A stretch of DNA of 64,000 bases from Escherichia phage EcSzw_1. The DNA lies in the sequence record MH791413.1; one strand, given 5' to 3'. The notes under the pieces were generated by a model. The model worked only from the letters and a program-made list of their open reading frames with translations, did no database searches and had not been told where the DNA came from. This document shows positions 3,066 to 18,499 of this stretch, piece by piece; position 1 is the first letter of the stretch; every line of letters starts with the position of its first letter. A program made the translations under genes and the position numbers.

Positions 3066-3117
3066 TTTGAATCTCCAGTTTAGGATTGATTTGGTAAATC
3101 TCTTTATCTGGGGCTAT
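3066..3117 (-). promoter_or_regulatory. Early promoter/leader cassette copy 4 (interrupted by N run 3118-3124)
   Basis: TTTGAATCTCCAGTTTAGGATTGATTTGGTAAATCTCTTTATCTGGGGCTAT then NNNNNNN. Confidence 0.4.
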
Positions 3118-3368
3118 NNNNNNNTAGTTTTCTTTGAGAAAATTAGTTTAACTGCAACCGTGGGAAGTTCTTCAATACTTGTAAAAAGCGTTACCTTTTG
3201 AGTAACAACCTTGTAACCATTTTTTGCAGCGTATGCCGTGAAACGATTAACCGTATAACTATAAGTTTTTGATGTGTTGTCTGACATATGGTACAAATAG
3301 GGCTTGCCTAAATTTTGAGATTGTGTTAACAGTCGGCAAGTATCAGGAACGTTTAAATAATTAAGCAT
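3114..3368 (-). CDS. Hypothetical small early protein (about 84 aa; 3' end obscured by N run)
   Basis: ORF in track; ATG at 3366-3368; C-terminal codons contain the N run. Confidence 0.4.
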   Translation of the reverse strand: MLNYLNVPDTCRLLTQSQNLGKPYLYHMSDNTSKTYSYTVNRFTAYAAKNGYKVVTQKVTLFTSIEELPTVAVKLIFSKKTXXX

Positions 3369-6332: not shown

Positions 6333-6415
6333 TTTGAATCTCCAGTTTAGGATTGATTATAAAGCTCTTTATCTGGGGCTTATGGTATCAAGCTTTTAAG
6401 CCCCTTGTANGCAAT
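6333..6415 (-). promoter_or_regulatory. Early promoter/leader cassette copy 11
   Basis: Near-identical to copy 3 (…GGGGCTTATGGTATCAAGCTTTTAAGCCCCTTGTA); N at 6410. Confidence 0.45.
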
Positions 6416-6568
6416 AATTTTTATAACTTCTTTTAGTGTGATGTTTTCGCCATTTGTCAAGGCTAAACATTTGTTACCAGTGCATGACAAGTAACTAAAC
6501 GAGACTTTACCAGTTTTAGAAAATCCGTCAAGCCCTTTGTAAGTGATGATAGAGTTTTCTTTTATCAT
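6380..6568 (-). CDS. Hypothetical small early protein (62 aa)
   Basis: ORF in track; 3' end reads through N at 6410 into cassette (same cassette-encoded C-terminus YKGLKSLIP as 2181..2444). Confidence 0.35.
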   Translation of the reverse strand: MIKENSIITYKGLDGFSKTGKVSFSYLSCTGNKCLALTNGENITLKEVIKIIXYKGLKSLIP

Positions 6569-6870: not shown

Positions 6871-6983
6871 TTTAAAAATATTTTCAGGAATTGCCAGAGA
6901 TGAACGGGCGCACGACTACCACAAAACATAGCACAAATCAAGAATTATTTTTCAGTTCTCTACAGATTTTTCTCTTGACTTTT

Positions 6984-7019
6984 GGGGAGAGGGGGAGTAA
7001 GAGGGGGAGAGGGGCAGGG
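6984..7019. repeat. G-tract cluster (GGGG, GGGGG, GGGGG, GGGG, GGG), potential G-quadruplex; C-rich on the transcribed minus strand
   Basis: TTTGGGGAGAGGGGGAGTAAGAGGGGGAGAGGGGCAGGGC read directly; compositionally unusual against the AT-rich surroundings. Confidence 0.5.
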
Positions 7020-7036
7020 CTGGCACTATCTACCTA

Positions 7037-7219
7037 CCTGCACAATTCTAAAATGATTTTTCTTGCCCGACACTCGCCGGGTCTGCACGTTTTGAAAATG
7101 AAAAATCTCTTTGGAGTCCACCTGCACAAATTGAAAATGAATTTTCCCTTTGGAGTTCAAAATTTTCTCTACAGATTTCTGTCCAGACTTTTACCTGCAC
7201 AATTTTAAAATGAAAAAGC
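7037..7219. repeat. Four direct repeats of a ~26 bp unit CCTGCACAAWTTNAAAATGAWWWWNC (starts 7037, 7082, 7121, 7194) plus two copies each of CTCTACAGATTT (6959, 7167) and CTTTGGAGTYCA (7108, 7148)
   Basis: Read directly from sequence; the only ORF across it (6891..7208 +) translates repeats and the G-tract. Confidence 0.55.
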
Positions 7220-7286
7220 CCTCCTTACCTGAAAATTTTACCAGATAAGAAAGGCTTAGTCTATTGTGAATATGCTACAGAGTTTC

Positions 7287-8069
7287 TTAGTTCTTTGCAG
7301 CTAAGAACTTGATGTTAGAAATGTCTACAATTGCTTCAGCATCTTTCTCATTTGCTGCAAGAATGTACACATCAGGTTCACTTCCAAATGTCACTGCACG
7401 TTGCATACTACCTTTCAACGGCGGGGTAACTTGAGCGTTACTTAGAGACATTCTCTCAACCGGAGGGTTACTCTGATGTACCTTGTTCTTACGATGCCTG
7501 AAGAGGATAACTCCGTCTTCGTTGACAACGGCTACCCCTGCAAAGTATTGTGGTTCACTGTGATTACCCCATGTTGACAGAGTACTAAACATTGCCTCTT
7601 CAAATACGTAAAGGTAAACATCAACATCTTTCAAGATGTGATTCATAATTACCACAACAGCTTTCGGGTCAAGTCCACCAATACCTGCACCAATCATTGG
7701 GAGACCAACTTTCTTCAGTTGATTCACTTTGCAGTACTGGCTAAGACTCAACAAAGCACTCTCAAGAGCATTGTAACGAGCATCTTTACCAGTCTTCAAC
7801 TGAGTGTATAGGTTAGCAATACGGCCTTGTTTAAGACGTGATACAGAGAGTTTACCAAGCAGTTTCTGACAAGGTTTATGCTCTCTTCCTCCTGCTACAC
7901 GGTAGACTTCGGCATCAGTTTCATAGGCTTTTGGGTAACCTTTAGAAATCTTGTAAGCAATACCTGCACCCATCAGGTTCATACAGTTGCAACCGTGACC
8001 AATGATATCAAACTTACCTTTTTCAAAGTCTGCGAAGATATCACCTTTGATGACTTTTACAATACCCAT
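7287..8069 (-). CDS. Macrodomain protein (ADP-ribose binding or hydrolase; TARG1/DarG-like signature) with uncharacterised C-terminal extension
   Basis: N-terminal VIKGDIFADF…DIIGHGCNCMNLMGAGIAYKI matches the GDxF … H-x-C … MGAGIA pattern of TARG1/OARD1-type macrodomains (from memory); about 110 aa C-terminal region unassigned. Confidence 0.65.
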   Translation of the reverse strand: MGIVKVIKGDIFADFEKGKFDIIGHGCNCMNLMGAGIAYKISKGYPKAYETDAEVYRVAGGREHKPCQKLLGKLSVSRLKQGRIANLYTQLKTGKDARYNALESALLSLSQYCKVNQLKKVGLPMIGAGIGGLDPKAVVVIMNHILKDVDVYLYVFEEAMFSTLSTWGNHSEPQYFAGVAVVNEDGVILFRHRKNKVHQSNPPVERMSLSNAQVTPPLKGSMQRAVTFGSEPDVYILAANEKDAEAIVDISNIKFLAAKN

Positions 8070-8070
8070 C

Positions 8071-8271
8071 TTACCATTTCTCCCATGATTCTTTATCTTC
8101 AGAAGGTTTTACACGTTGACCTTCATGGTCTACCCAGATTCCACCACAACCTTCACAGAGTGTTGGCATAGCATAGCCAGCTTTGAACTCTTCTTCAGAG
8201 ATAAGACCTCTCAAGTCTCCTGTATCACGTCCAAACAGTTCGATGGAACAATCTTTGCAGAAATCAGCCAT
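8071..8271 (-). CDS. Small zinc-ribbon protein (66 aa)
   Basis: CKDC … CEGCGG cysteine pairs; ATG at 8269-8271. Confidence 0.45.
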   Translation of the reverse strand: MADFCKDCSIELFGRDTGDLRGLISEEEFKAGYAMPTLCEGCGGIWVDHEGQRVKPSEDKESWEKW

Positions 8272-9740: not shown

Positions 9741-9768
9741 AAAACGAAAAAGGCTCCCGAAGGAGCCT
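9741..9768 (-). terminator. Rho-independent terminator (UUCG tetraloop hairpin plus U-tract on minus-strand RNA)
   Basis: GGCTCC-CGAA-GGAGCC at 9752-9767 preceded on the plus strand by AAAACGAAAAA (U-tract on minus). Confidence 0.55.
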
Positions 9769-10256: not shown

Positions 10257-10952
10257 TTAGTGTTTGATAAGCATTGTGTTAATTTCTGGAAGGATTCGTT
10301 TAACCTTCTCAACATTCCTTACTGTATCTTCTATAAAACATACTACATCATAGTACGGAAGAATGCAAGACTGAATCATACGAACTTTCAAACTTTCTGC
10401 ACTGATTCTATTTGAACCAAAACCACGCATAAAAAGCATGTAGTCAGTCACGATATGCTTGTCAATAAACAAATGGGTTGGTACACGTTGAGACTCACCA
10501 CGAGCAGTTAAAACACCGATTGCAGCACTTTTATGGATGCCTGAAATGATATTAAAGATGTACGTAGGTTGTGCATCAACTGACTCAATCAAGTTTGTAT
10601 ACTGTGACAGAGTGCCATCTTCCAGATATGTTGAGTTTGTTGGCTTATCAAACTTAGTGAGAACACCATCAATATCTGTTAAAACCATTGGCTTCTTCAT
10701 ATCAAGGTCTTTTGCAACCAAGATTAAGCTGTCACGTTTAACGGCTACTGACTTACCTGTTTGAAGGTCTGTACAGAGAACTGTTTCAGCAGATGAATGA
10801 AAGTCTTTGAAGTCACATTCAACAGCCCTTGCAGTATCTGCAAAGTCTTCTTTCATAAGGTCTGTCCAGCTTGCAGCACTGATATCTATAGCCAGAGGGT
10901 TGATATCGTAAGCGTGACAAAATACCTTATCCAATTGTTTTAATTCGCTCAT
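10257..10952 (-). CDS. HAD-superfamily hydrolase (putative nucleotidase or phosphatase)
   Basis: HAD motif I LTDIDGVLT; track start is a TTG at 10994; ATG at 10950-10952 with upstream AAGG chosen. Confidence 0.55.
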   Translation of the reverse strand: MSELKQLDKVFCHAYDINPLAIDISAASWTDLMKEDFADTARAVECDFKDFHSSAETVLCTDLQTGKSVAVKRDSLILVAKDLDMKKPMVLTDIDGVLTKFDKPTNSTYLEDGTLSQYTNLIESVDAQPTYIFNIISGIHKSAAIGVLTARGESQRVPTHLFIDKHIVTDYMLFMRGFGSNRISAESLKVRMIQSCILPYYDVVCFIEDTVRNVEKVKRILPEINTMLIKH

Positions 10953-11478
10953 GTTTAACCTTTTTGATGTTTGTTGCAAACTCACATTGAGCAAGCACCT
11001 TCATGTTATTGTACACATCTTGAGAGTATTGTCTAGCTTTCGGAATACGGTATGAATAACCTGCATTGTATGAAGCTAAGACACGCTGTAAAGAGTATTT
11101 CCCATTAGGATTACCATGAACCTTAGTCCAGAACTGAAGCTCTTTGTGTGTCTCCTTTGCAGCATAATCGAAGTCTCTGATAAGTTTCTTCTTAGCTACG
11201 TTTGGGTTAACTTTGTTACGCTTTACAACAGTCTTCAAGTGATTCTGGAACAAACCATAATCGTGAGTCTTTTTATTTTCAAGACGAAGACCTAACTCTG
11301 ACTCTTGTAAGGCTATAGCGGCTAAGGTTAATCCCCAACCTTTACCCATCTCTTTCTCACCGTAGTGATAAGCTTTAAGCATGTTTGTTTTCTGACTGAT
11401 GGATAACTCTGGACAGTCTGAAGCGACTGCCAAATGTGCTGTTAAGAATAAGCACAAACCTAAAATGAACTTCTTCAT
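10927..11478 (-). CDS. Lytic transglycosylase (SLT domain) with Sec signal peptide
   Basis: Signal peptide MKKFILGLCLFLTAHLAVA; SLT motifs QESELG, YGLFQ, SYNAGYS. Confidence 0.6.
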   Translation of the reverse strand: MKKFILGLCLFLTAHLAVASDCPELSISQKTNMLKAYHYGEKEMGKGWGLTLAAIALQESELGLRLENKKTHDYGLFQNHLKTVVKRNKVNPNVAKKKLIRDFDYAAKETHKELQFWTKVHGNPNGKYSLQRVLASYNAGYSYRIPKARQYSQDVYNNMKVLAQCEFATNIKKVKHERIKTIG

Positions 11479-11578: not shown

Positions 11579-12688
11579 TCAGATTTCACGTTTACGCTGA
11601 GAAATAAGTTCACCAGCAGTGCCTACAACAACATGCAGTGCTTCAGATTTGCCATCCCACTCTTTGACAACCTGACGCTGACCATTCACGATTGCTGCAA
11701 CTTCATAACGGGAAGCTCGCATTTTCATATCTTGATAGTCAGTTGGTACAGATACAACGTCTCGTGGATGTACACGAACTTTCAGGATAGTATCACCAGA
11801 GAAGCTACGTACATAATCCCAAGCACCAACGTGCAGACCTTGAGAGCAAGTTACTGTACGGTCATTATCAACCATCCAGCGTGGCATCTCTACAACGTTA
11901 CCCAAATCATTAGGAACTTTGCATGTACGGGAGTCAAACAGCTTACCACCACGAGTTGTAACTTTCTTCCAACCGATGATATAACCTTCTTCATCAATCT
12001 CAACATCGAGGTGAGACACAAAACCCCAAAGTTGTTCTACAGAATCTTTGGATGGGTTTTCCATCAGTTTTTCGAAGAATGCTACCAGACGTTTAAAGCC
12101 ATCATCACCAACTTTCATCATGTCCAGAATACGGTCTACCAGAGTGGAGCGCATTTGAACAGCACCGTAGTACAGGTTATCACCTTTGATAGTGATTGCA
12201 CCCTGAGTGAAGTTCTCGATAGACTTACGAATGTTCATCAGTTCGAAAGCTTTCTTGTACTCACCACCTACAACAGCCATCACGATTTCTTTGTAGTTCG
12301 GATGGGTAGATTCAACGATTTCAGAATCTGCACCGAAAGTCATGATGACAGAATCACCAGTAATCATGTACTCAATCTGGTTGCCATTCTGCATCGCTTC
12401 ATGCAGTTGGTTAACAGGTTCCTTCTTCACTGCCTCTTTAACAGCCTTGGCAACTGGCTTAGTAGCCGTCTTCTTAGCAGACTTTGCAATCTGTTTCAGA
12501 GTCTGCTTAGCTGACTTAGAAGATGCTTTCTTAGCACCTTTCAGTGTTGCTTCGTGACGTTCTACAGCACGACCAACGGAACGAGTAGAAGTGTTATACT
12601 TCATTGCAATGGCAGTTTTGGTCAGTTTACCTTCCTGAACCAGTGCGTAGATTTCTGCGTCGATTTGTGCTTTAGTTTTAGTAGTCAT
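11579..12688 (-). CDS. rIIB: rIIB-like protein
   Basis: Immediately downstream of the rIIA-like GHKL ATPase gene, size about 370 aa; assignment by synteny and size, not by recognised motif. Confidence 0.45.
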   Translation of the reverse strand: MTTKTKAQIDAEIYALVQEGKLTKTAIAMKYNTSTRSVGRAVERHEATLKGAKKASSKSAKQTLKQIAKSAKKTATKPVAKAVKEAVKKEPVNQLHEAMQNGNQIEYMITGDSVIMTFGADSEIVESTHPNYKEIVMAVVGGEYKKAFELMNIRKSIENFTQGAITIKGDNLYYGAVQMRSTLVDRILDMMKVGDDGFKRLVAFFEKLMENPSKDSVEQLWGFVSHLDVEIDEEGYIIGWKKVTTRGGKLFDSRTCKVPNDLGNVVEMPRWMVDNDRTVTCSQGLHVGAWDYVRSFSGDTILKVRVHPRDVVSVPTDYQDMKMRASRYEVAAIVNGQRQVVKEWDGKSEALHVVVGTAGELISQRKREI

Positions 12689-12767: not shown

Positions 12768-15134
12768 TTAATCGAAAGCCTGAGTTCCTTCAGGAATGCA
12801 CTTAACATCAAATCCTAAGAACTGACCAACTTCAACAGGACTTACTTTATTCCAGTCTAAGTTAGAAAGCAAGAAGTTTTCTGCTTTACGTGCTGTGAAG
12901 TACACATTCAACTTCTGCTTAATACGTTCTCTTGCATTGTAGATTGCAGAGTGTACCTTACTCTTAGCTCTTGTCAAGCGTTGTAAGTCATGCAGAACAC
13001 TTGTAACGTCCTTATAAGCAATCGGTGAAGCGACATAAGCCAGCTTACCAAACATTGCTTCTACAGCATCTTCATTCCCTTCCAAGAAGATACGTTTGCT
13101 GTAATCAGTACTGTAGACATAACCTCTTGAGCACTTCTTATCACCAAACTGGAACGTTCTTGCAATAACACCTTTATCAGTGATATCACAGTTTGAACTA
13201 CACCATTCACGAGTTACAAAGCGGTTAAACTCAATCCAGTGAATGTCAGTGATAGAATCTTTGAAGACTTGCTGATTCACCTCTAACCAGTCTTCAGGGA
13301 TTTTCTTCCAGTTTGCTTTACGGAACACATAAACTGACTGTCCAGTTAAACGTGCCATAACCTTTGCAGCAGACTCTGGAGTGCAACTAAAAATTCCACC
13401 AAGGACTTCATCACTCTGTGCTTTGATATAATACTGAGGTTCTTCAATATCATCAAAGTTTTCTTTCACTTCTGTATAAGATACACCGTGTTCATGTACA
13501 GAAGCTTTGTAGAGTTTTACAACACCACGAGTAACAGTACGCTTCACATAGTGGTGTTCTTTGTCAGACATTTTAACAATCGTCAACAGACTCTTATCAA
13601 GCATGTGAAGATTGATAAACTGGTCTAACTCTTGCTCATCAGAGAACATGTAAACAATGCCGTTGTAGCGACGGAAGTTTGGTTCTTCATTTTCACGGTC
13701 ACGGCAAGCACCACGAATAATCTGATTACGTCCTACAGTCTTTTCAGTACCATTTTTGTTTCGACGGTCATTGATAAGGAACAAATAGTTAGACATTTTG
13801 TTCTTACTCATTGCACCGAAGATACTGAAGTTTGCACCTTCCTGAGTGTACATCGCTGAAGTTGCACGAATCTTGTTTTCCAGTTGGTTATACTTGAAGT
13901 AAGCAACAGGCTCATAAAGATTCCCAATAACAGGAATGTGATTACCGCTCTTATCAACAAGTAAAGCCCCTGAGTCATCAGTTGCAAACTTTGGAGTACC
14001 ATCTGGGTTGCTCAAATGCCCTTGACGAATCTTTAAAAGTTTCTGTTCAAGGTCTGCTAAGTTCTGACCATTCCACTCAAGGCGAGTAAACACATGCTGG
14101 AAGATTTCACGAGAATTAGCTCGTAAGTCTGCATAAGCCTGTGCAGCGTCTGCCAAGGTTGGTTCGTTGTCAATGCGTTTTACCACATCTTCTACAATCG
14201 TTGCAGTAATCTTTTTAACTGCGTCTGTAATAGCTTGCTTAGTGGTTTCATTCATCTGCAATGCTTCACGAGATGCGGCAATAGCCACTGAACCAATAGG
14301 CATGTAGATATTAACAAGGTCTACAGCATTACGGAAGAATGTAGGAAGTACATTGGTGAACTCTGCACCAAGTAAGTCTCCTAAGTCAACCGGATAAGCA
14401 ATGTTACCCATGACAACGTTGAAGTTTGTCTGGTTATTACTTGAACGCCAGTTCTCTTTATACTTCATCGCATCGTAAACACCATCTTCACGTACAATGG
14501 TAGTCATCTCGCTAAGAATATCACGGTATTCTACGTTGCATTCTGGCTTCAATTTGAAGTAAGAGAATACATTGCTCGCTTCTTCATGAAACTTCTGAAT
14601 ACGGTGGTCAGCTACTGCAACACGAACTGCTAAACCATTTGGTTCGGTAGTCGGGTTGGTCGTCAGTTTAGTAACTTGAGGGATACCATTCTCAAGATAT
14701 ACAGAGTACTTGTTAACTACGCCGTCTACGTAGCTGGACACGGTGAATGACTGTGCAATTGCAAAAGGTGACTTTGAACCGATACCCATAGCACCGATGT
14801 AGTCATTTGAGTCATTCTTAGTAGAAGCTCCATAGTTCAGGTACAGAGACATAACCTTCTCATGGGTCAGACCAGTACCGAAGTCACGAACTTCAAAGTA
14901 TGGGTCAAAACGAGTTGGCAGGTGTACACGGAATGGTACATTCTCTTTTCCAGCTTCTTTGTGAGTATCTACAGCATTACAAGACAACTCACGAATTACA
15001 GCACGTTCTTTAAAAGTGTAAACACCTGAACTTAACAGGCTGAACATTTCAGGGGTCATCGTGATAGATGCCTGAGAAGTTTCTAATGAAGATGAACTCT
15101 TAATCACCTCTGCGTGGTCATTTACCATGCGCAT
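12768..15134 (-). CDS. rIIA: rIIA-like protein with N-terminal GHKL (histidine-kinase-like) ATPase domain
   Basis: GHKL motifs IRELSCNAVDTH (N box), VRDFGTGL (G1), GAMGIGSKSPF (G2); 788 aa; followed by rIIB-sized gene. Confidence 0.65.
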   Translation of the reverse strand: MRMVNDHAEVIKSSSSLETSQASITMTPEMFSLLSSGVYTFKERAVIRELSCNAVDTHKEAGKENVPFRVHLPTRFDPYFEVRDFGTGLTHEKVMSLYLNYGASTKNDSNDYIGAMGIGSKSPFAIAQSFTVSSYVDGVVNKYSVYLENGIPQVTKLTTNPTTEPNGLAVRVAVADHRIQKFHEEASNVFSYFKLKPECNVEYRDILSEMTTIVREDGVYDAMKYKENWRSSNNQTNFNVVMGNIAYPVDLGDLLGAEFTNVLPTFFRNAVDLVNIYMPIGSVAIAASREALQMNETTKQAITDAVKKITATIVEDVVKRIDNEPTLADAAQAYADLRANSREIFQHVFTRLEWNGQNLADLEQKLLKIRQGHLSNPDGTPKFATDDSGALLVDKSGNHIPVIGNLYEPVAYFKYNQLENKIRATSAMYTQEGANFSIFGAMSKNKMSNYLFLINDRRNKNGTEKTVGRNQIIRGACRDRENEEPNFRRYNGIVYMFSDEQELDQFINLHMLDKSLLTIVKMSDKEHHYVKRTVTRGVVKLYKASVHEHGVSYTEVKENFDDIEEPQYYIKAQSDEVLGGIFSCTPESAAKVMARLTGQSVYVFRKANWKKIPEDWLEVNQQVFKDSITDIHWIEFNRFVTREWCSSNCDITDKGVIARTFQFGDKKCSRGYVYSTDYSKRIFLEGNEDAVEAMFGKLAYVASPIAYKDVTSVLHDLQRLTRAKSKVHSAIYNARERIKQKLNVYFTARKAENFLLSNLDWNKVSPVEVGQFLGFDVKCIPEGTQAFD

Positions 15135-15745: not shown

Positions 15746-17572
15746 TTAAAGCTGTCTGTCAATAACATTTCGTACATCACGAAGGTTAACGTAGCCATAT
15801 GGCTGAGAGTCGCAGAATACCAGCTTCAGAGCACACTGAGGGTTATCCAGTACACTTTCAAACTCTGCAAAACCAAAGCCATCCACAGCTTCCAGCTTAT
15901 CACCATCCCACATAGGGACTACACCACCAAAAGCAGACTTCTTAAGACCACTGTCAGTTTTAGGGTCTTTTGCCAGCATGATTTCTTCACCATCCATCTG
16001 TGCAAGAGTTGCTTTAACAGCAAATGCAAAGGTATCACGAGTCATGTACTGGTAAGTGTATGAACCAACACCGAAGACAACGTTAGAACTTGCAAAGCCC
16101 TTTTCAGCAAGACGGCTAAGAATCTCTTCAGCACGTTCCAGAGTGATAGAATCACCGTAGATTAAACCAATGTGTTCATCAAGAACTTTGTAGCCTTTAG
16201 AGTTTACAGCGCCACCAAAAATGTTGTACAGAGTCTTGATAGCACCATCAATTTCTGCTGTCAGCATTGGTTTAACAACAACTTGACCAGTCTTGTAAGT
16301 ATCTTTCAGGTTAACTGTATCAGCAACGTTAAAGTCTTCTGCATCAACAACCAACTCATAACCTTCAGAGATTAGCCAAGCAGAGAAGCCATAGCCCATA
16401 TCTGACATGTTGCAATTAAGGATTGCATCAAGCAGATAAGTATTGTTAGGAGAAATGGTTGACATGTGTTTGTAATACATGCTCTTAGCATTTTCCCATT
16501 CAATTGCACGATAGCCAGTAACAATGTGTACAGGGTCACCGGAATCTGGACGGATTACCAGTTTACCATCACGTTTCAGGATTACTTCACGGAGTTCTGG
16601 AAGAATCTCTGTAACTGTACGCCAGAAGTTGTAAGTATCGGACACAACACTTGCAATACCAGTTGGGTAAACATCTACCAGCAGGTGTTCAAATGTTTTA
16701 ACCTCACCACGCCAGCGTTTAGCATCCAGCAAACTATCAGACTGCATGATGTACTGTGAGTGAATGTCATCTTCTGTCAGGTCTTTCATATTCCATGAAA
16801 TGTTTGCACACATCACAGAGTGTTCAGTTGCTGGAACAGAGTTACCAATATCACTTACAGTCATGAACTGACCATATGCACGTTTAGCAGTATACACAGC
16901 AGGGAAGCTATCAGTACCTTTAAAGCTTGTCAGGTGACCTACAGCATTGAAAGCATCATCTGTGAATCCAGACATACCACGCATTGCAAAGTCGTGACAC
17001 TGCCAAGGAAGATGGAAGTCATTGTCACAGGTCTTATCAGACCAAGATTTACAGATACGTTTGTAATGCAGTGCAATAGTTGCAATGGTACAAGCTTTCC
17101 AGATTTCAGCAGAGAAAGCATCTTCCAGATAACCAGCTACCCAATGGAAGCCCTCAACGGTATTTTTGAAGATAATCATTGGAACACGCATAGGAACGAT
17201 TGTGCCTTCTTCAACAGAGTACACTGCAACTGGCAGATAGCCTAAGTCGTGAAGTTCTTCCCAATGATGACGCTTGATAGCATCTGCACCGAGAACACCA
17301 TTCATGATTTCCAAGATNTCATCAACAGCTTCTTTCTTATCACGTTCGAAGAAAGTTGCATTCCAATGGTCTACTAAGTAATCTTTAACGAAACGTTGGA
17401 TACCAAAAGCAACTACACCGTCAGTCTCCAAAGGAGTGTTAAACCACTTATTACCACGAGGTGTAAGGTTCAGCATCAGGTGCTGAGTTGTACTTGGGTA
17501 CTGGTAGATGTGACCAGCTTTGTAAGCATCTGCGTTAAGACCTGCTGGAACTGCATAGATTGATTTAGACAT
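15746..17572 (-). CDS. Nicotinamide phosphoribosyltransferase family protein (NadV/NAMPT-like; candidate Namat of NARP1)
   Basis: 608 aa; N-terminal NADAYKAGH resembles the NAMPT DSYK-x-x-H signature; adjacent to PRPP-synthetase-family gene; N at 17318 gives one X. Confidence 0.7.
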   Translation of the reverse strand: MSKSIYAVPAGLNADAYKAGHIYQYPSTTQHLMLNLTPRGNKWFNTPLETDGVVAFGIQRFVKDYLVDHWNATFFERDKKEAVDXILEIMNGVLGADAIKRHHWEELHDLGYLPVAVYSVEEGTIVPMRVPMIIFKNTVEGFHWVAGYLEDAFSAEIWKACTIATIALHYKRICKSWSDKTCDNDFHLPWQCHDFAMRGMSGFTDDAFNAVGHLTSFKGTDSFPAVYTAKRAYGQFMTVSDIGNSVPATEHSVMCANISWNMKDLTEDDIHSQYIMQSDSLLDAKRWRGEVKTFEHLLVDVYPTGIASVVSDTYNFWRTVTEILPELREVILKRDGKLVIRPDSGDPVHIVTGYRAIEWENAKSMYYKHMSTISPNNTYLLDAILNCNMSDMGYGFSAWLISEGYELVVDAEDFNVADTVNLKDTYKTGQVVVKPMLTAEIDGAIKTLYNIFGGAVNSKGYKVLDEHIGLIYGDSITLERAEEILSRLAEKGFASSNVVFGVGSYTYQYMTRDTFAFAVKATLAQMDGEEIMLAKDPKTDSGLKKSAFGGVVPMWDGDKLEAVDGFGFAEFESVLDNPQCALKLVFCDSQPYGYVNLRDVRNVIDRQL

Positions 17573-17592
17573 GTTTTAATCTCTCTCAAAGT

Positions 17593-17608
17593 GGGGCTTT
17601 GCAGCCCC
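17593..17608 (-). other. Intergenic GNRA-tetraloop hairpin between Prs-like and NAMPT-like genes
   Basis: GGGGCT-TTGC-AGCCCC; no U-tract on the minus strand, so not a clear terminator. Confidence 0.4.
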
Positions 17609-17617
17609 TGATTAATT

Positions 17618-18499
17618 TTAGTAAATGTTTGCTACAGTTACTTGACCGAAATGAGTCAGACCACGGTCTTTTGCACTACCTAAAGAGTCTGTAGTGTAGA
17701 TGTGTGAAATCCCATTGTCAAGCAGGTTTTCAACACCTTTTGAGAAAATACCATGTGTTACATACAGTTCAACTTTAGCTGCTCCAGCTTCACGAAGATA
17801 CTTGGCTGCTTCAATGAATGTACGACCACCATCACAGATATCATCAATGATGAGTACAGTTTTACCAGTCAGGTCTACATCATCCAGTAGACGCATACCT
17901 GTAATCTCACCAGTCTTCAGGTCTCGAACCTTAGCCATTGTAACGTAAGGCTTATCAACCTCTTTAGCCGTCTCTGCAATCTTCTTAGCTGCTCCTGCAT
18001 CTGGTGCTACCAAGAAATCAATGGTAGGCTCACTGGCATAGTGTGCTGCAACATCTTTTTGATGGATGTTCTGGAAGCATTTGAACAGGTTATCTGCAAC
18101 GTCACTGTGGGCGTCTAGAGCACATACTGCATCAAAACCCATTGCATTGACCAGATTAGCAAACACCTTTAGTGCTGCTGCATCACCTTTAAATATGTGA
18201 CGGTCATAGCGAGCATTTGGCAGATAAGCAAAGATGACAGTTTTCATAGTTGCTTGCTGAGGAATCATTTTGTCGATTGCCTCTTTTGCCAGAGCTAAAG
18301 CAAACAATGTGTCTTTGTCATAACCCTGTACAGTGAAGATGACGTTCTCAATCTGGGAAGCATTCTCTTCAGCATAGATTACTAAGTCTTCAGAGAAGTT
18401 ACCACCAATTTCTCCAGACGGGAACTGGATAATGTTGAACTCTTCTTGGTGAGCACCTTTTTTCTGTGAGTGCAACAGTACGCTAATAATAGTTTTCAT
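17618..18499 (-). CDS. Ribose-phosphate pyrophosphokinase family protein (Prs-like; candidate Adps of NARP1)
   Basis: PRPP-binding loop VLIIDDICDGGRT; 293 aa. Confidence 0.75.
   Translation of the reverse strand: MKTIISVLLHSQKKGAHQEEFNIIQFPSGEIGGNFSEDLVIYAEENASQIENVIFTVQGYDKDTLFALALAKEAIDKMIPQQATMKTVIFAYLPNARYDRHIFKGDAAALKVFANLVNAMGFDAVCALDAHSDVADNLFKCFQNIHQKDVAAHYASEPTIDFLVAPDAGAAKKIAETAKEVDKPYVTMAKVRDLKTGEITGMRLLDDVDLTGKTVLIIDDICDGGRTFIEAAKYLREAGAAKVELYVTHGIFSKGVENLLDNGISHIYTTDSLGSAKDRGLTHFGQVTVANIY

Follow-up and report, generated by a model that had tools for sequence, protein, structure and literature searches.

What does a virulent phage gain from a gene that joins a macrodomain to a second domain of no known fold? 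The question is raised by positions 7287..8069, minus strand, of a 64,000-nucleotide stretch of DNA from Escherichia phage EcSzw_1 (MH791413.1), referred to below as the window. The phage is a virulent myovirus of the genus Suspvirus, one of the Ounavirinae (Felix O1-like phages), which are used widely in typing, biocontrol and therapy of Salmonella and E. coli. The gene product consists of a macrodomain, a short linker helix and a C-terminal domain (CTD) that is specific to this lineage, has no detectable relative outside the macrodomain fusion and has no known fold. The reading that we rank first, with a probability of about 0.4, is that the protein protects the phage from DarT2-type toxins in the manner of Tk.4 (AdfM) of phage T4.

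The gene and its product

The gene and its parts, all on the minus strand, are:

7287..8069, minus strand: the whole macro-CTD gene (open reading frame list, translation and database record)
7599..8069, minus strand: macrodomain, residues 1-157 (Pfam Macro, AlphaFold2 (AF2), Foldseek and alignments)
7986..7988, minus strand: codon of Asn28, invariant and aligned with Asn23 of PhiKZ AdfM
7800..7802, minus strand: codon of Gln90, at the position of the catalytic Lys in TARG1 (K84), TaqDarG (K80) and PhiKZ gp104
7575..7598, minus strand: linker helix, residues 158-165 (DSSP on the AF2 model)
7290..7574, minus strand: orphan CTD, residues 166-260, with six beta strands and one helix (AF2 and searches)

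The open reading frame (ORF) of 260 amino acids (aa) runs from ATG to a TAA stop and is a complete and real gene. Its counterpart in Escherichia phage EcSzw-2 (MH791400), to which the window is 100% identical over the 2.5 kb tested, is EcSzw2_17 with the label 'putative phosphatase'; other relatives are labelled 'phosphatase' or 'macro domain protein', and the former label stems from Poa1p, an ADP-ribose 1''-phosphate phosphatase. The protein starts with MGIVKVIKGDIFADFEKGKFDIIGHGCNCMNLMGAGIA, as quoted in a preliminary description of the gene, and the GDIF and DIIGHGCNCMNLMGAGIA motifs which that description had placed in the N-terminal domain are both found there, within the N-terminal sequence MGIVKVIKGDIFADFEKGKFDIIGHGCNCMNLMGAGIAYKIS.

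Pfam Macro (PF01661) matches residues 25-142 (E 2.7e-8; 34.2 bits, cut-off 22) and PHROG 335 ('phosphatase') spans residues 1-259 (E 1.3e-96). Conservation of the gene is far beyond chance, with at least 80% of the protein covered in 264 records of the phage collection and metagenomic homologues at E-values down to 1e-164, and the gene is carried by each member of the Ounavirinae sampled, including Kolesnikvirus. Any match to the macrodomain protein was registered for 2,754 phage records. As a macrodomain, this half is unremarkable: its phage family is widespread and has been annotated for years, with its function emerging since 2025.

Structure and catalytic residues of the macrodomain

An AF2 model of the full protein, built from 21 homologues, was confident throughout, with a mean predicted local distance difference test score (pLDDT) of 87 and a predicted TM-score (pTM) of 0.86. 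According to DSSP, the macrodomain extends to about residue 157 and is followed by a helix at 158-165 and a beta-rich domain at 166-260. Foldseek retrieved 239 PDB macrodomain chains at E<=0.001, with TM-scores up to 0.83, and revealed the three-layer alpha/beta/alpha macro fold. The 13 best PDB matches were all to TARG1, DarG (of T. aquaticus and M. tuberculosis) or Poa1p, the same set was returned by PDB sequence and profile searches, and the best PADLOC and best NCBIfam models were both DarG (E about 1e-13). Residues 1-157 are confidently assigned as a macrodomain, and it belongs to the TARG1/DarG/Poa1p branch rather than the MacroD type. The preliminary description, which had proposed structure prediction and a Foldseek comparison as a check on its TARG1/DarG-type assignment, was correct about the macro fold and about the branch, but the closer affiliation did not hold: the catalytic Lys is replaced by Gln90 and the DarG equivalog model is missed.

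The macrodomain carries the motifs H25-G-C-N28-C, G34-A-G36, N86-L-Y-T-Q90 and P124-x-I-G-A-G-I-G-G-L-D134, and both glycine-rich loops, G34-A-G36 and G127-A-G-I-G-G132, which in macrodomains grip the phosphates of ADP-ribose, are invariant across the 21 homologues. Gln occupies the Lys position in 11 of 11 macro-CTD proteins and in 22 of 22 single-domain Tk.4/Adpp relatives (33/33), and yeast Poa1p has a Ser there. In the hidden Markov model (HMM) alignment, the column of TARG1 D125, which partners the catalytic Lys in that enzyme, holds G131, with the invariant D134 lying three residues further on. With NF048014, the DarG equivalog model of NCBIfam (cut-off 250), the protein reaches 47.7 bits and matches only profile positions 3-149 of 338; the PADLOC DarG model is matched at positions 17-145 of 329. 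Because Gln replaces the Lys84/Lys80 of TARG1 and DarG, and the DarG score is far below its cut-off and confined to the macro part, the protein is not an orthologue of DarG or TARG1; it belongs to the phage Tk.4/Adpp/Poa1p-like clade. No darT gene is adjacent: the macro-CTD gene is flanked by small early genes of the phage, with no annotated ADP-ribosyltransferase (ART).

Among proteins of known structure, human TARG1/OARD1 (4J5Q/R/S) ranks first by structure (Foldseek E 3e-10, TM-score 0.83 on the target, profile E 4e-11), but it shares only 23-24% identity, has K84 in place of Q90, has D125 in the column that the HMM alignment gives to G131, and lacks an extra domain. DarG (5M31, 5M3E, 5M3I) and PhiKZ gp104 share the macro fold, the best defence HMM and the GGLD sequence of loop 2 with the EcSzw_1 protein, and DarG also has a two-domain layout of a macrodomain plus a second domain, whereas identity is limited to 19-21%, the Lys has become Gln90, the DarT-binding domain is not matched and a neighbouring DarT is absent. 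Poa1p (6LFQ) is the best single-sequence PDB match, through the N-terminal H-x-C-N-C...G-G-G-I-A, and also lacks the Lys; however, its confident alignment is limited to the first ~60 residues, and Poa1p, a housekeeping enzyme of eukaryotic tRNA splicing, has no CTD.

The second glycine loop distinguishes the fused proteins from their single-domain relatives. The latter have G-G-[DN]-W, with the Trp present in 21 of 22, and a Trp also occurs at this position in TARG1, both DarG proteins and BT1257. All 11 macro-CTD proteins have G-G-L-D there, and the next residue is small or aliphatic. At residues 133-135 (7665-7673) the macro-CTD clade lacks the loop-2 Trp, and a Leu replaces the Gly of those relatives. 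Judged from the alignment, gain of the CTD coincides with remodelling beside the active site, and we infer from this coincidence that the CTD packs at loop 2 or alters substrate access.

Phage relatives studied by experiment

Of the homologues that have been studied by experiment, T4 Tk.4 has the highest pairwise score (79.7 bits, E 2e-23), residues 3-131 being 40% identical. Similarity is lower to the NARP1-operon macrodomain of PN09 (33% identity, E 4e-19), to Adpp of Vibrio phage Gary (30%, E 2e-17) and to PhiKZ gp104 (20%, E 4e-4), and T4 Tk.4 and Gary Adpp share 35% identity with one another (E 2e-23). T4 becomes sensitive to DarTG2 when tk.4 is hit by transposons or cleanly deleted, and Tk.4 was named AdfM (anti-DarT factor Macrodomain) in a 2025 preprint (bioRxiv 10.1101/2025.11.20.689424). 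PhiKZ gp104, a DarG-like phage macrodomain, strips DarT2-derived ADP-ribose from DNA in vitro, and the N23A exchange in PhiKZ AdfM reduces DNA de-ADP-ribosylation (PMC13309987). Gary Adpp (KNV71_gp137) converts ADP-ribose (ADPR)-1''-phosphate to ADPR in vitro, and the three-gene NARP1-AP operon depends on it to defeat aRES, a defence based on a RES-domain NAD+ phosphorylase (bioRxiv 10.64898/2026.01.28.702374).

Tk.4 and the EcSzw_1 protein are both early gene products of virulent E. coli myoviruses, belong to the same macrodomain clade and share HGCNC, NLYTQ (with the Gln) and IGAGIG. They differ in that Tk.4 is a single domain of 155 aa, lacking the added linker helix and 95-aa orphan domain, has GKGNW in place of GGLD-x at loop 2, and is encoded by a genome without NARP1. 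Adpp belongs to the same radiation, has the equivalent Asn and Gln and likewise shares its genome with Adps and Namat, but it is a single-domain protein encoded within the NARP1 operon, while the EcSzw_1 gene, which includes the CTD, belongs to a transcription unit of its own, ~7.7 kb from the NARP1 genes of its phage.

In a neighbour-joining tree (200 bootstraps) the macro-CTD proteins are monophyletic at 97.5%, and DarG and gp104 are split at 92% from TARG1, BT1257 and the Tk.4/Adpp radiation, in which the macro-CTD proteins are included. NARP1-associated macrodomains are dispersed over the tree. An AdfM identity and an Adpp identity are not separable by sequence or tree; both activities cut ADP-ribose at its 1'' carbon, and one enzyme may perform both.

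An orphan C-terminal domain

When residues 160-260 were predicted alone the same secondary structure was obtained (pLDDT 83), and the high pTM of the two-domain model suggests that the two domains are packed in a fixed arrangement. The CTD is compact and confidently predicted and has no structural relative. The preliminary description had left about 110 C-terminal residues unassigned; no recognisable relative was found for them here either, but the domain itself is shorter, at ~95 residues (166-260).

Foldseek against BFVD with the CTD yielded the SUSP2 orthologue alone, Pfam searches of 17 CTDs gave nothing recurrent, and PHROGs returned only phrog_335 itself. A CTD profile compared exhaustively with 1.84 billion representatives gave 11 matches, of which the genuine ones were macrodomain fusions of 246-269 aa or fragments thereof. 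The large repeat proteins P0035, P0037, P0039 and P0040 matched in many short stretches and were rejected as strand-pattern coincidences; P0037 and P0040 consist of propeller-like repeats of the type 'AVSFSPDGSLLATAS'. The CTD occurs in 242 records of the phage collection, all Felix O1-like, and that of Kolesnikvirus is too diverged for the profile to detect, although its first half still aligns. A local HMM search of the loci examined, among them T4 and three single-domain loci from metagenomes, detected no separate CTD-like gene beside single-domain macrodomains. The occurrence of the fusion across the Ounavirinae and the accompanying change in loop 2 are undescribed in the literature searched.

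Within Felixounavirus and Suspvirus, identity is 50-59% for the CTD and 74-79% for the macrodomain, and in distant relatives 15-25% and 42-49%, respectively. By these figures the CTD evolves at about twice the rate of the macrodomain, which is consistent with an interface under arms-race pressure. Near-invariant residues of the CTD are limited to P173, G178 and Y235, with almost no conserved polar residues, and its charge is acidic in some proteins and basic in others. These features speak against both a generic DNA-binding module and a second catalytic site and fit a structural or binding module. Comparison of single-domain forms (Tk.4, Adpp) with the fused form offers a direct way to ask what the accessory domain contributes.

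Possible protection against DarT2-type toxins

The gene product would be an early, non-structural anti-defence enzyme, the macrodomain of which would bind ADP-ribose and hydrolyse the group on the 1'' carbon of the distal ribose. Removal of ADP-ribose from thymidines of single-stranded phage DNA would allow replication to continue, and the ~95-residue CTD, packed on the macrodomain, would tailor the enzyme to some macromolecular partner or substrate; it might dock, for instance, on a defence protein of the host, much as DarG uses its second domain to bind DarT. We place DarT2 reversal narrowly first because similarity is highest to Tk.4, whose phenotype was established in the native phage in the same host genus, and because loop 2 and the two-domain logic are DarG-like. 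The tk.4 knockout phenotype was obtained in E. coli, the catalytic Asn of PhiKZ gp104 aligns with the invariant N28, and loop 2 reads GGLD as in DarG, compared with GGDW in single-domain Tk.4/Adpp. Moreover, the second domain of DarG2 is a DarT-binding domain, and the layout of a macrodomain plus an extra domain parallels that of DarG. The anti-defence role put forward in the preliminary description is backed in this way by experiments on homologues, T4 Tk.4 being required against DarTG2 (bioRxiv 10.1101/2025.11.20.689424).

Several points weigh against a DarT2-directed role. Gln90 is aligned with the Lys after beta-strand 5 that catalysis by DarG and TARG1 needs, and T4 Tk.4, which has a Gln there too, is supported by a genetic phenotype only (bioRxiv 10.1101/2025.11.20.689424). 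Branching inside the Tk.4/Adpp radiation has bootstrap values of 10-46%, too low to place the macro-CTD clade nearer to either Tk.4 or Adpp. The CTD is not consistently basic, with isoelectric points of 4.7-9.6 and net charges of -4 to +4, so that a generic nucleic-acid-binding function is unsupported, and no similarity to, or homology with, the C-terminal DarT-binding domain of DarG was seen with the PADLOC and NCBIfam DarG models; the sequence therefore indicates neither DNA nor DarT binding. A literature search found no experiment on any Ounavirinae homologue, nor any data on the orthologue of phage Bas63 in the HIDEN-SEQ, PhageMaP, NARP1 and aRES papers.

Possible provision of ADP-ribose for NARP1

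The clade has a second proven activity which the preliminary description missed, that of an ADPR-1''-phosphate phosphatase feeding NARP1 (bioRxiv 10.64898/2026.01.28.702374), and it is relevant here because the window itself encodes NARP1. The elements concerned, all on the minus strand, are:

17618..18499, minus strand: Adps (PRPP-synthetase-like, 293 aa), the first NARP1 enzyme, by homology
15746..17572, minus strand: Namat (NAMPT-like, 608 aa), the second NARP1 enzyme, by homology, with a terminator-like hairpin after it (15734-15711)
9751..9768, minus strand: terminator-like hairpin closing the preceding unit, after a 154-aa gene (sequence)
7216..7257, minus strand: terminator-like hairpin with a 17-pair stem and a T run, 30 nt past the stop codon of the macro-CTD gene

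Adps and Namat together make up a complete NARP1 pair for the reconstitution of NAD+ (15746..18499, minus strand). The macrodomain could be an unlinked Adpp which supplies this pair: aRES splits NAD+ into nicotinamide and ADPR-1''-phosphate, which NARP1 cannot use, while the dephosphorylated ADPR can be converted to NAD+, and Adps would then be a candidate user of the ADPR that the macrodomain releases. We place this a close second, and it may coexist with DarT2 reversal since the two are not exclusive. It draws on the in vitro activity of Gary Adpp, its requirement against aRES and its membership of the same radiation, on the homology to that protein (30%) and to the PN09 macrodomain (33%), and on H-x-x-N-C and N-[LV]-Y-x-Q being common to all, with Gln at the TARG1/DarG Lys; Poa1p, the founding ADPR-1''-phosphate phosphatase, is also without the Lys. 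The scatter of NARP1-linked macrodomains over the tree suggests that phosphatase activity may be radiation-wide. NARP1 was discovered and validated in a Felixounavirus, Bas63, and Adps homologues occur in all Ounavirinae sampled (about 250 records, Kolesnikvirus included), a spread matching that of the macro-CTD protein.

This co-occurrence fits an Adpp-like role but is weak evidence because it concerns a single lineage, macrodomains being present in about 41% of myoviruses. Adpp has been defined operationally by a position no more than two genes from Adps/Namat (bioRxiv 10.64898/2026.01.28.702374), and the macro-CTD gene fails this definition: it lies ~7.7 kb and more than ten genes downstream of NARP1. 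Co-transcription is rejected in view of three strong terminator-like hairpins in the interval (15734-15711 after Namat, 11565-11542 after rIIB and 9768-9751 after the 154-aa gene). Given the last of these hairpins, the transcription unit of the macro-CTD gene extends from ~9750 to 7216, and the gene is the last of that unit. Furthermore, operon-encoded Adpp is single-domain, which leaves the fast-evolving extra domain unexplained, and pairwise similarity is somewhat higher to Tk.4 of T4, a phage lacking NARP1. Around the nearest single-domain relatives, no NARP1 was found within 6 kb at three metagenomic loci.

If DarT2 reversal, supply of ADPR to NARP1, or both apply, the gene would help to set host range on strains defended at the level of NAD+ or ADP-ribose. 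An Adpp-like role would, in addition, imply that Adpp-type helpers need not reside in the NARP1 operon, and that the published figure, 15% of NARP1 phages, is an underestimate.

Other possible functions

Returning to defence by direct interference, a bipartite protein can be envisaged, in which the macrodomain erases the product of the defence enzyme (ADP-ribosylated DNA or ADPR-1''-phosphate) while the fast-evolving CTD, as a new fold, binds and blocks the enzyme itself, DarT2 or a RES NADase. We consider it rather unlikely; if true, the phage protein would have arrived independently, from a sequence of other origin, at the two-pronged strategy of the DarG antitoxin.

Degradation or sequestration of soluble ADPR-derived signals (the gcADPR and His-ADPR of Thoeris and other 1''/2''-linked ADPR derivatives) is more doubtful still. 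Comparative genomics has been used to argue that ADPR derivatives of low molecular weight are the targets of most Macro, NADAR and Nudix domains in phages, macrodomains of Thoeris II ThsA bind His-ADPR, and the ligand-binding loops are intact in the EcSzw_1 protein, but no member of the Tk.4/Adpp radiation is known to process the signals of Thoeris and the locus gives no pointer to them.

Erasure of protein ADP-ribosylation, whether by host toxin ARTs or in tuning a phage ART, as T4 might do with Alt, ModA and ModB, is improbable. TARG1 is the best structural match, and macrodomains of its branch often remove mono-ADP-ribose from proteins, but the catalytic Lys of TARG1 is absent and no ART is annotated in the close RefSeq relative SUSP2.

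Least probable of all is a catalytically dead ADP-ribose reader, in which the macrodomain is only a sensor and the CTD the effector, since the loss of the canonical Lys and, in the macro-CTD clade, of the conserved loop-2 Trp is set against Gln90, N28, D134 and both glycine loops being invariant, as in the catalytically proven Adpp, and against a CTD nearly devoid of conserved polar residues.

Neighbouring genes

The macro-CTD gene lies in the early rIIA/rIIB region, among a run of small ORFs. The following neighbours are on the same strand:

12768..15134, minus strand: rIIA (annotation)
11579..12688, minus strand: rIIB (annotation)
10257-11478, minus strand: overlapping HAD/PNKP-phosphatase-like (weak Pfam match) and SLT-like genes
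8071..8271, minus strand: 66-aa CxxC...CxxC zinc-ribbon-like gene with its stop 1 nt ahead of the macro ATG

The order rIIA, rIIB, HAD-PNKP, small genes, four-Cys gene and macro-CTD gene is retained in distant metagenomic relatives, the macrodomains of which are 43-45% identical. The HAD/PNKP-like gene is annotated as polynucleotide kinase and the SLT-like transglycosylase has a signal-peptide-like N-terminus; distant relatives, too, have both genes upstream of the macro-CTD gene. Single-domain homologues in three metagenomic contigs of 87-97 kb adjoin, or lie within two genes of, large rIIA-like and rIIB-like genes (L009:6001-10820; L010:6001-9126; L011:2186-6492), the rIIA-like protein being HATPase_c_3 of about 860 aa. 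A macro-rII neighbourhood is recurrent, in the Ounavirinae as well.

A protein of 63-68 aa with two CxxC motifs is encoded directly ahead of the macro-CTD gene both here and in two distant relatives (L003:7810-8001; L004:7792-7998), and in these pairs the stop and start are 1 nt apart or overlap. Homology of the L003 protein is not obvious, yet it has the four Cys. The mini-protein could act as a partner to the macro-CTD protein.

Minor observations on the window and related records

Beyond the terminator of the macro-CTD gene there is a non-coding stretch of roughly 450 nt, in which four copies of ACCTGCACAAWTYKAAAATGA occur at 6927-7239, spaced by 73-109 nt, together with a second repeat, TTCTCTACAGATTT... 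A plus-strand coding sequence annotated there, 6891..7208 (EcSzw2_16, MH791400), corresponds to this repeat-rich non-coding stretch and is probably spurious.

An intergenic cassette of ~90 nt is present eight times between 1300 and 6400; its core, CTCTTTATCTGGGGCT, has eight exact matches compared with 0.03 expected:

1349, 2166, 3100, 3894, 4952, 5552, 5898 and 6365: cassette core motif, each copy with a small early gene directly downstream on the minus strand

Read on the minus strand, the cassette contains a promoter-like pair TTTACA...TATAAG, a GGGG...CCCC hairpin, a GGAG Shine-Dalgarno motif and an ATG. Apparent plus-strand ORFs ending in ...FESPV were rejected as the same cassette read on the wrong strand. 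N bases occur in cassettes near 3117-3124, 3939, 4970 and 6410, and an X in the ORF at 6380..6568. Such ambiguous bases fit the UNVERIFIED flag of the GenBank record, and the macro-CTD gene is free of them. Finally, GU169904.1, named 'Staphylococcus phage SA1' (147 kb), contains DNA of the Felix O1 type, with 80% identity to the macro region, and is probably a chimeric or contaminated assembly.

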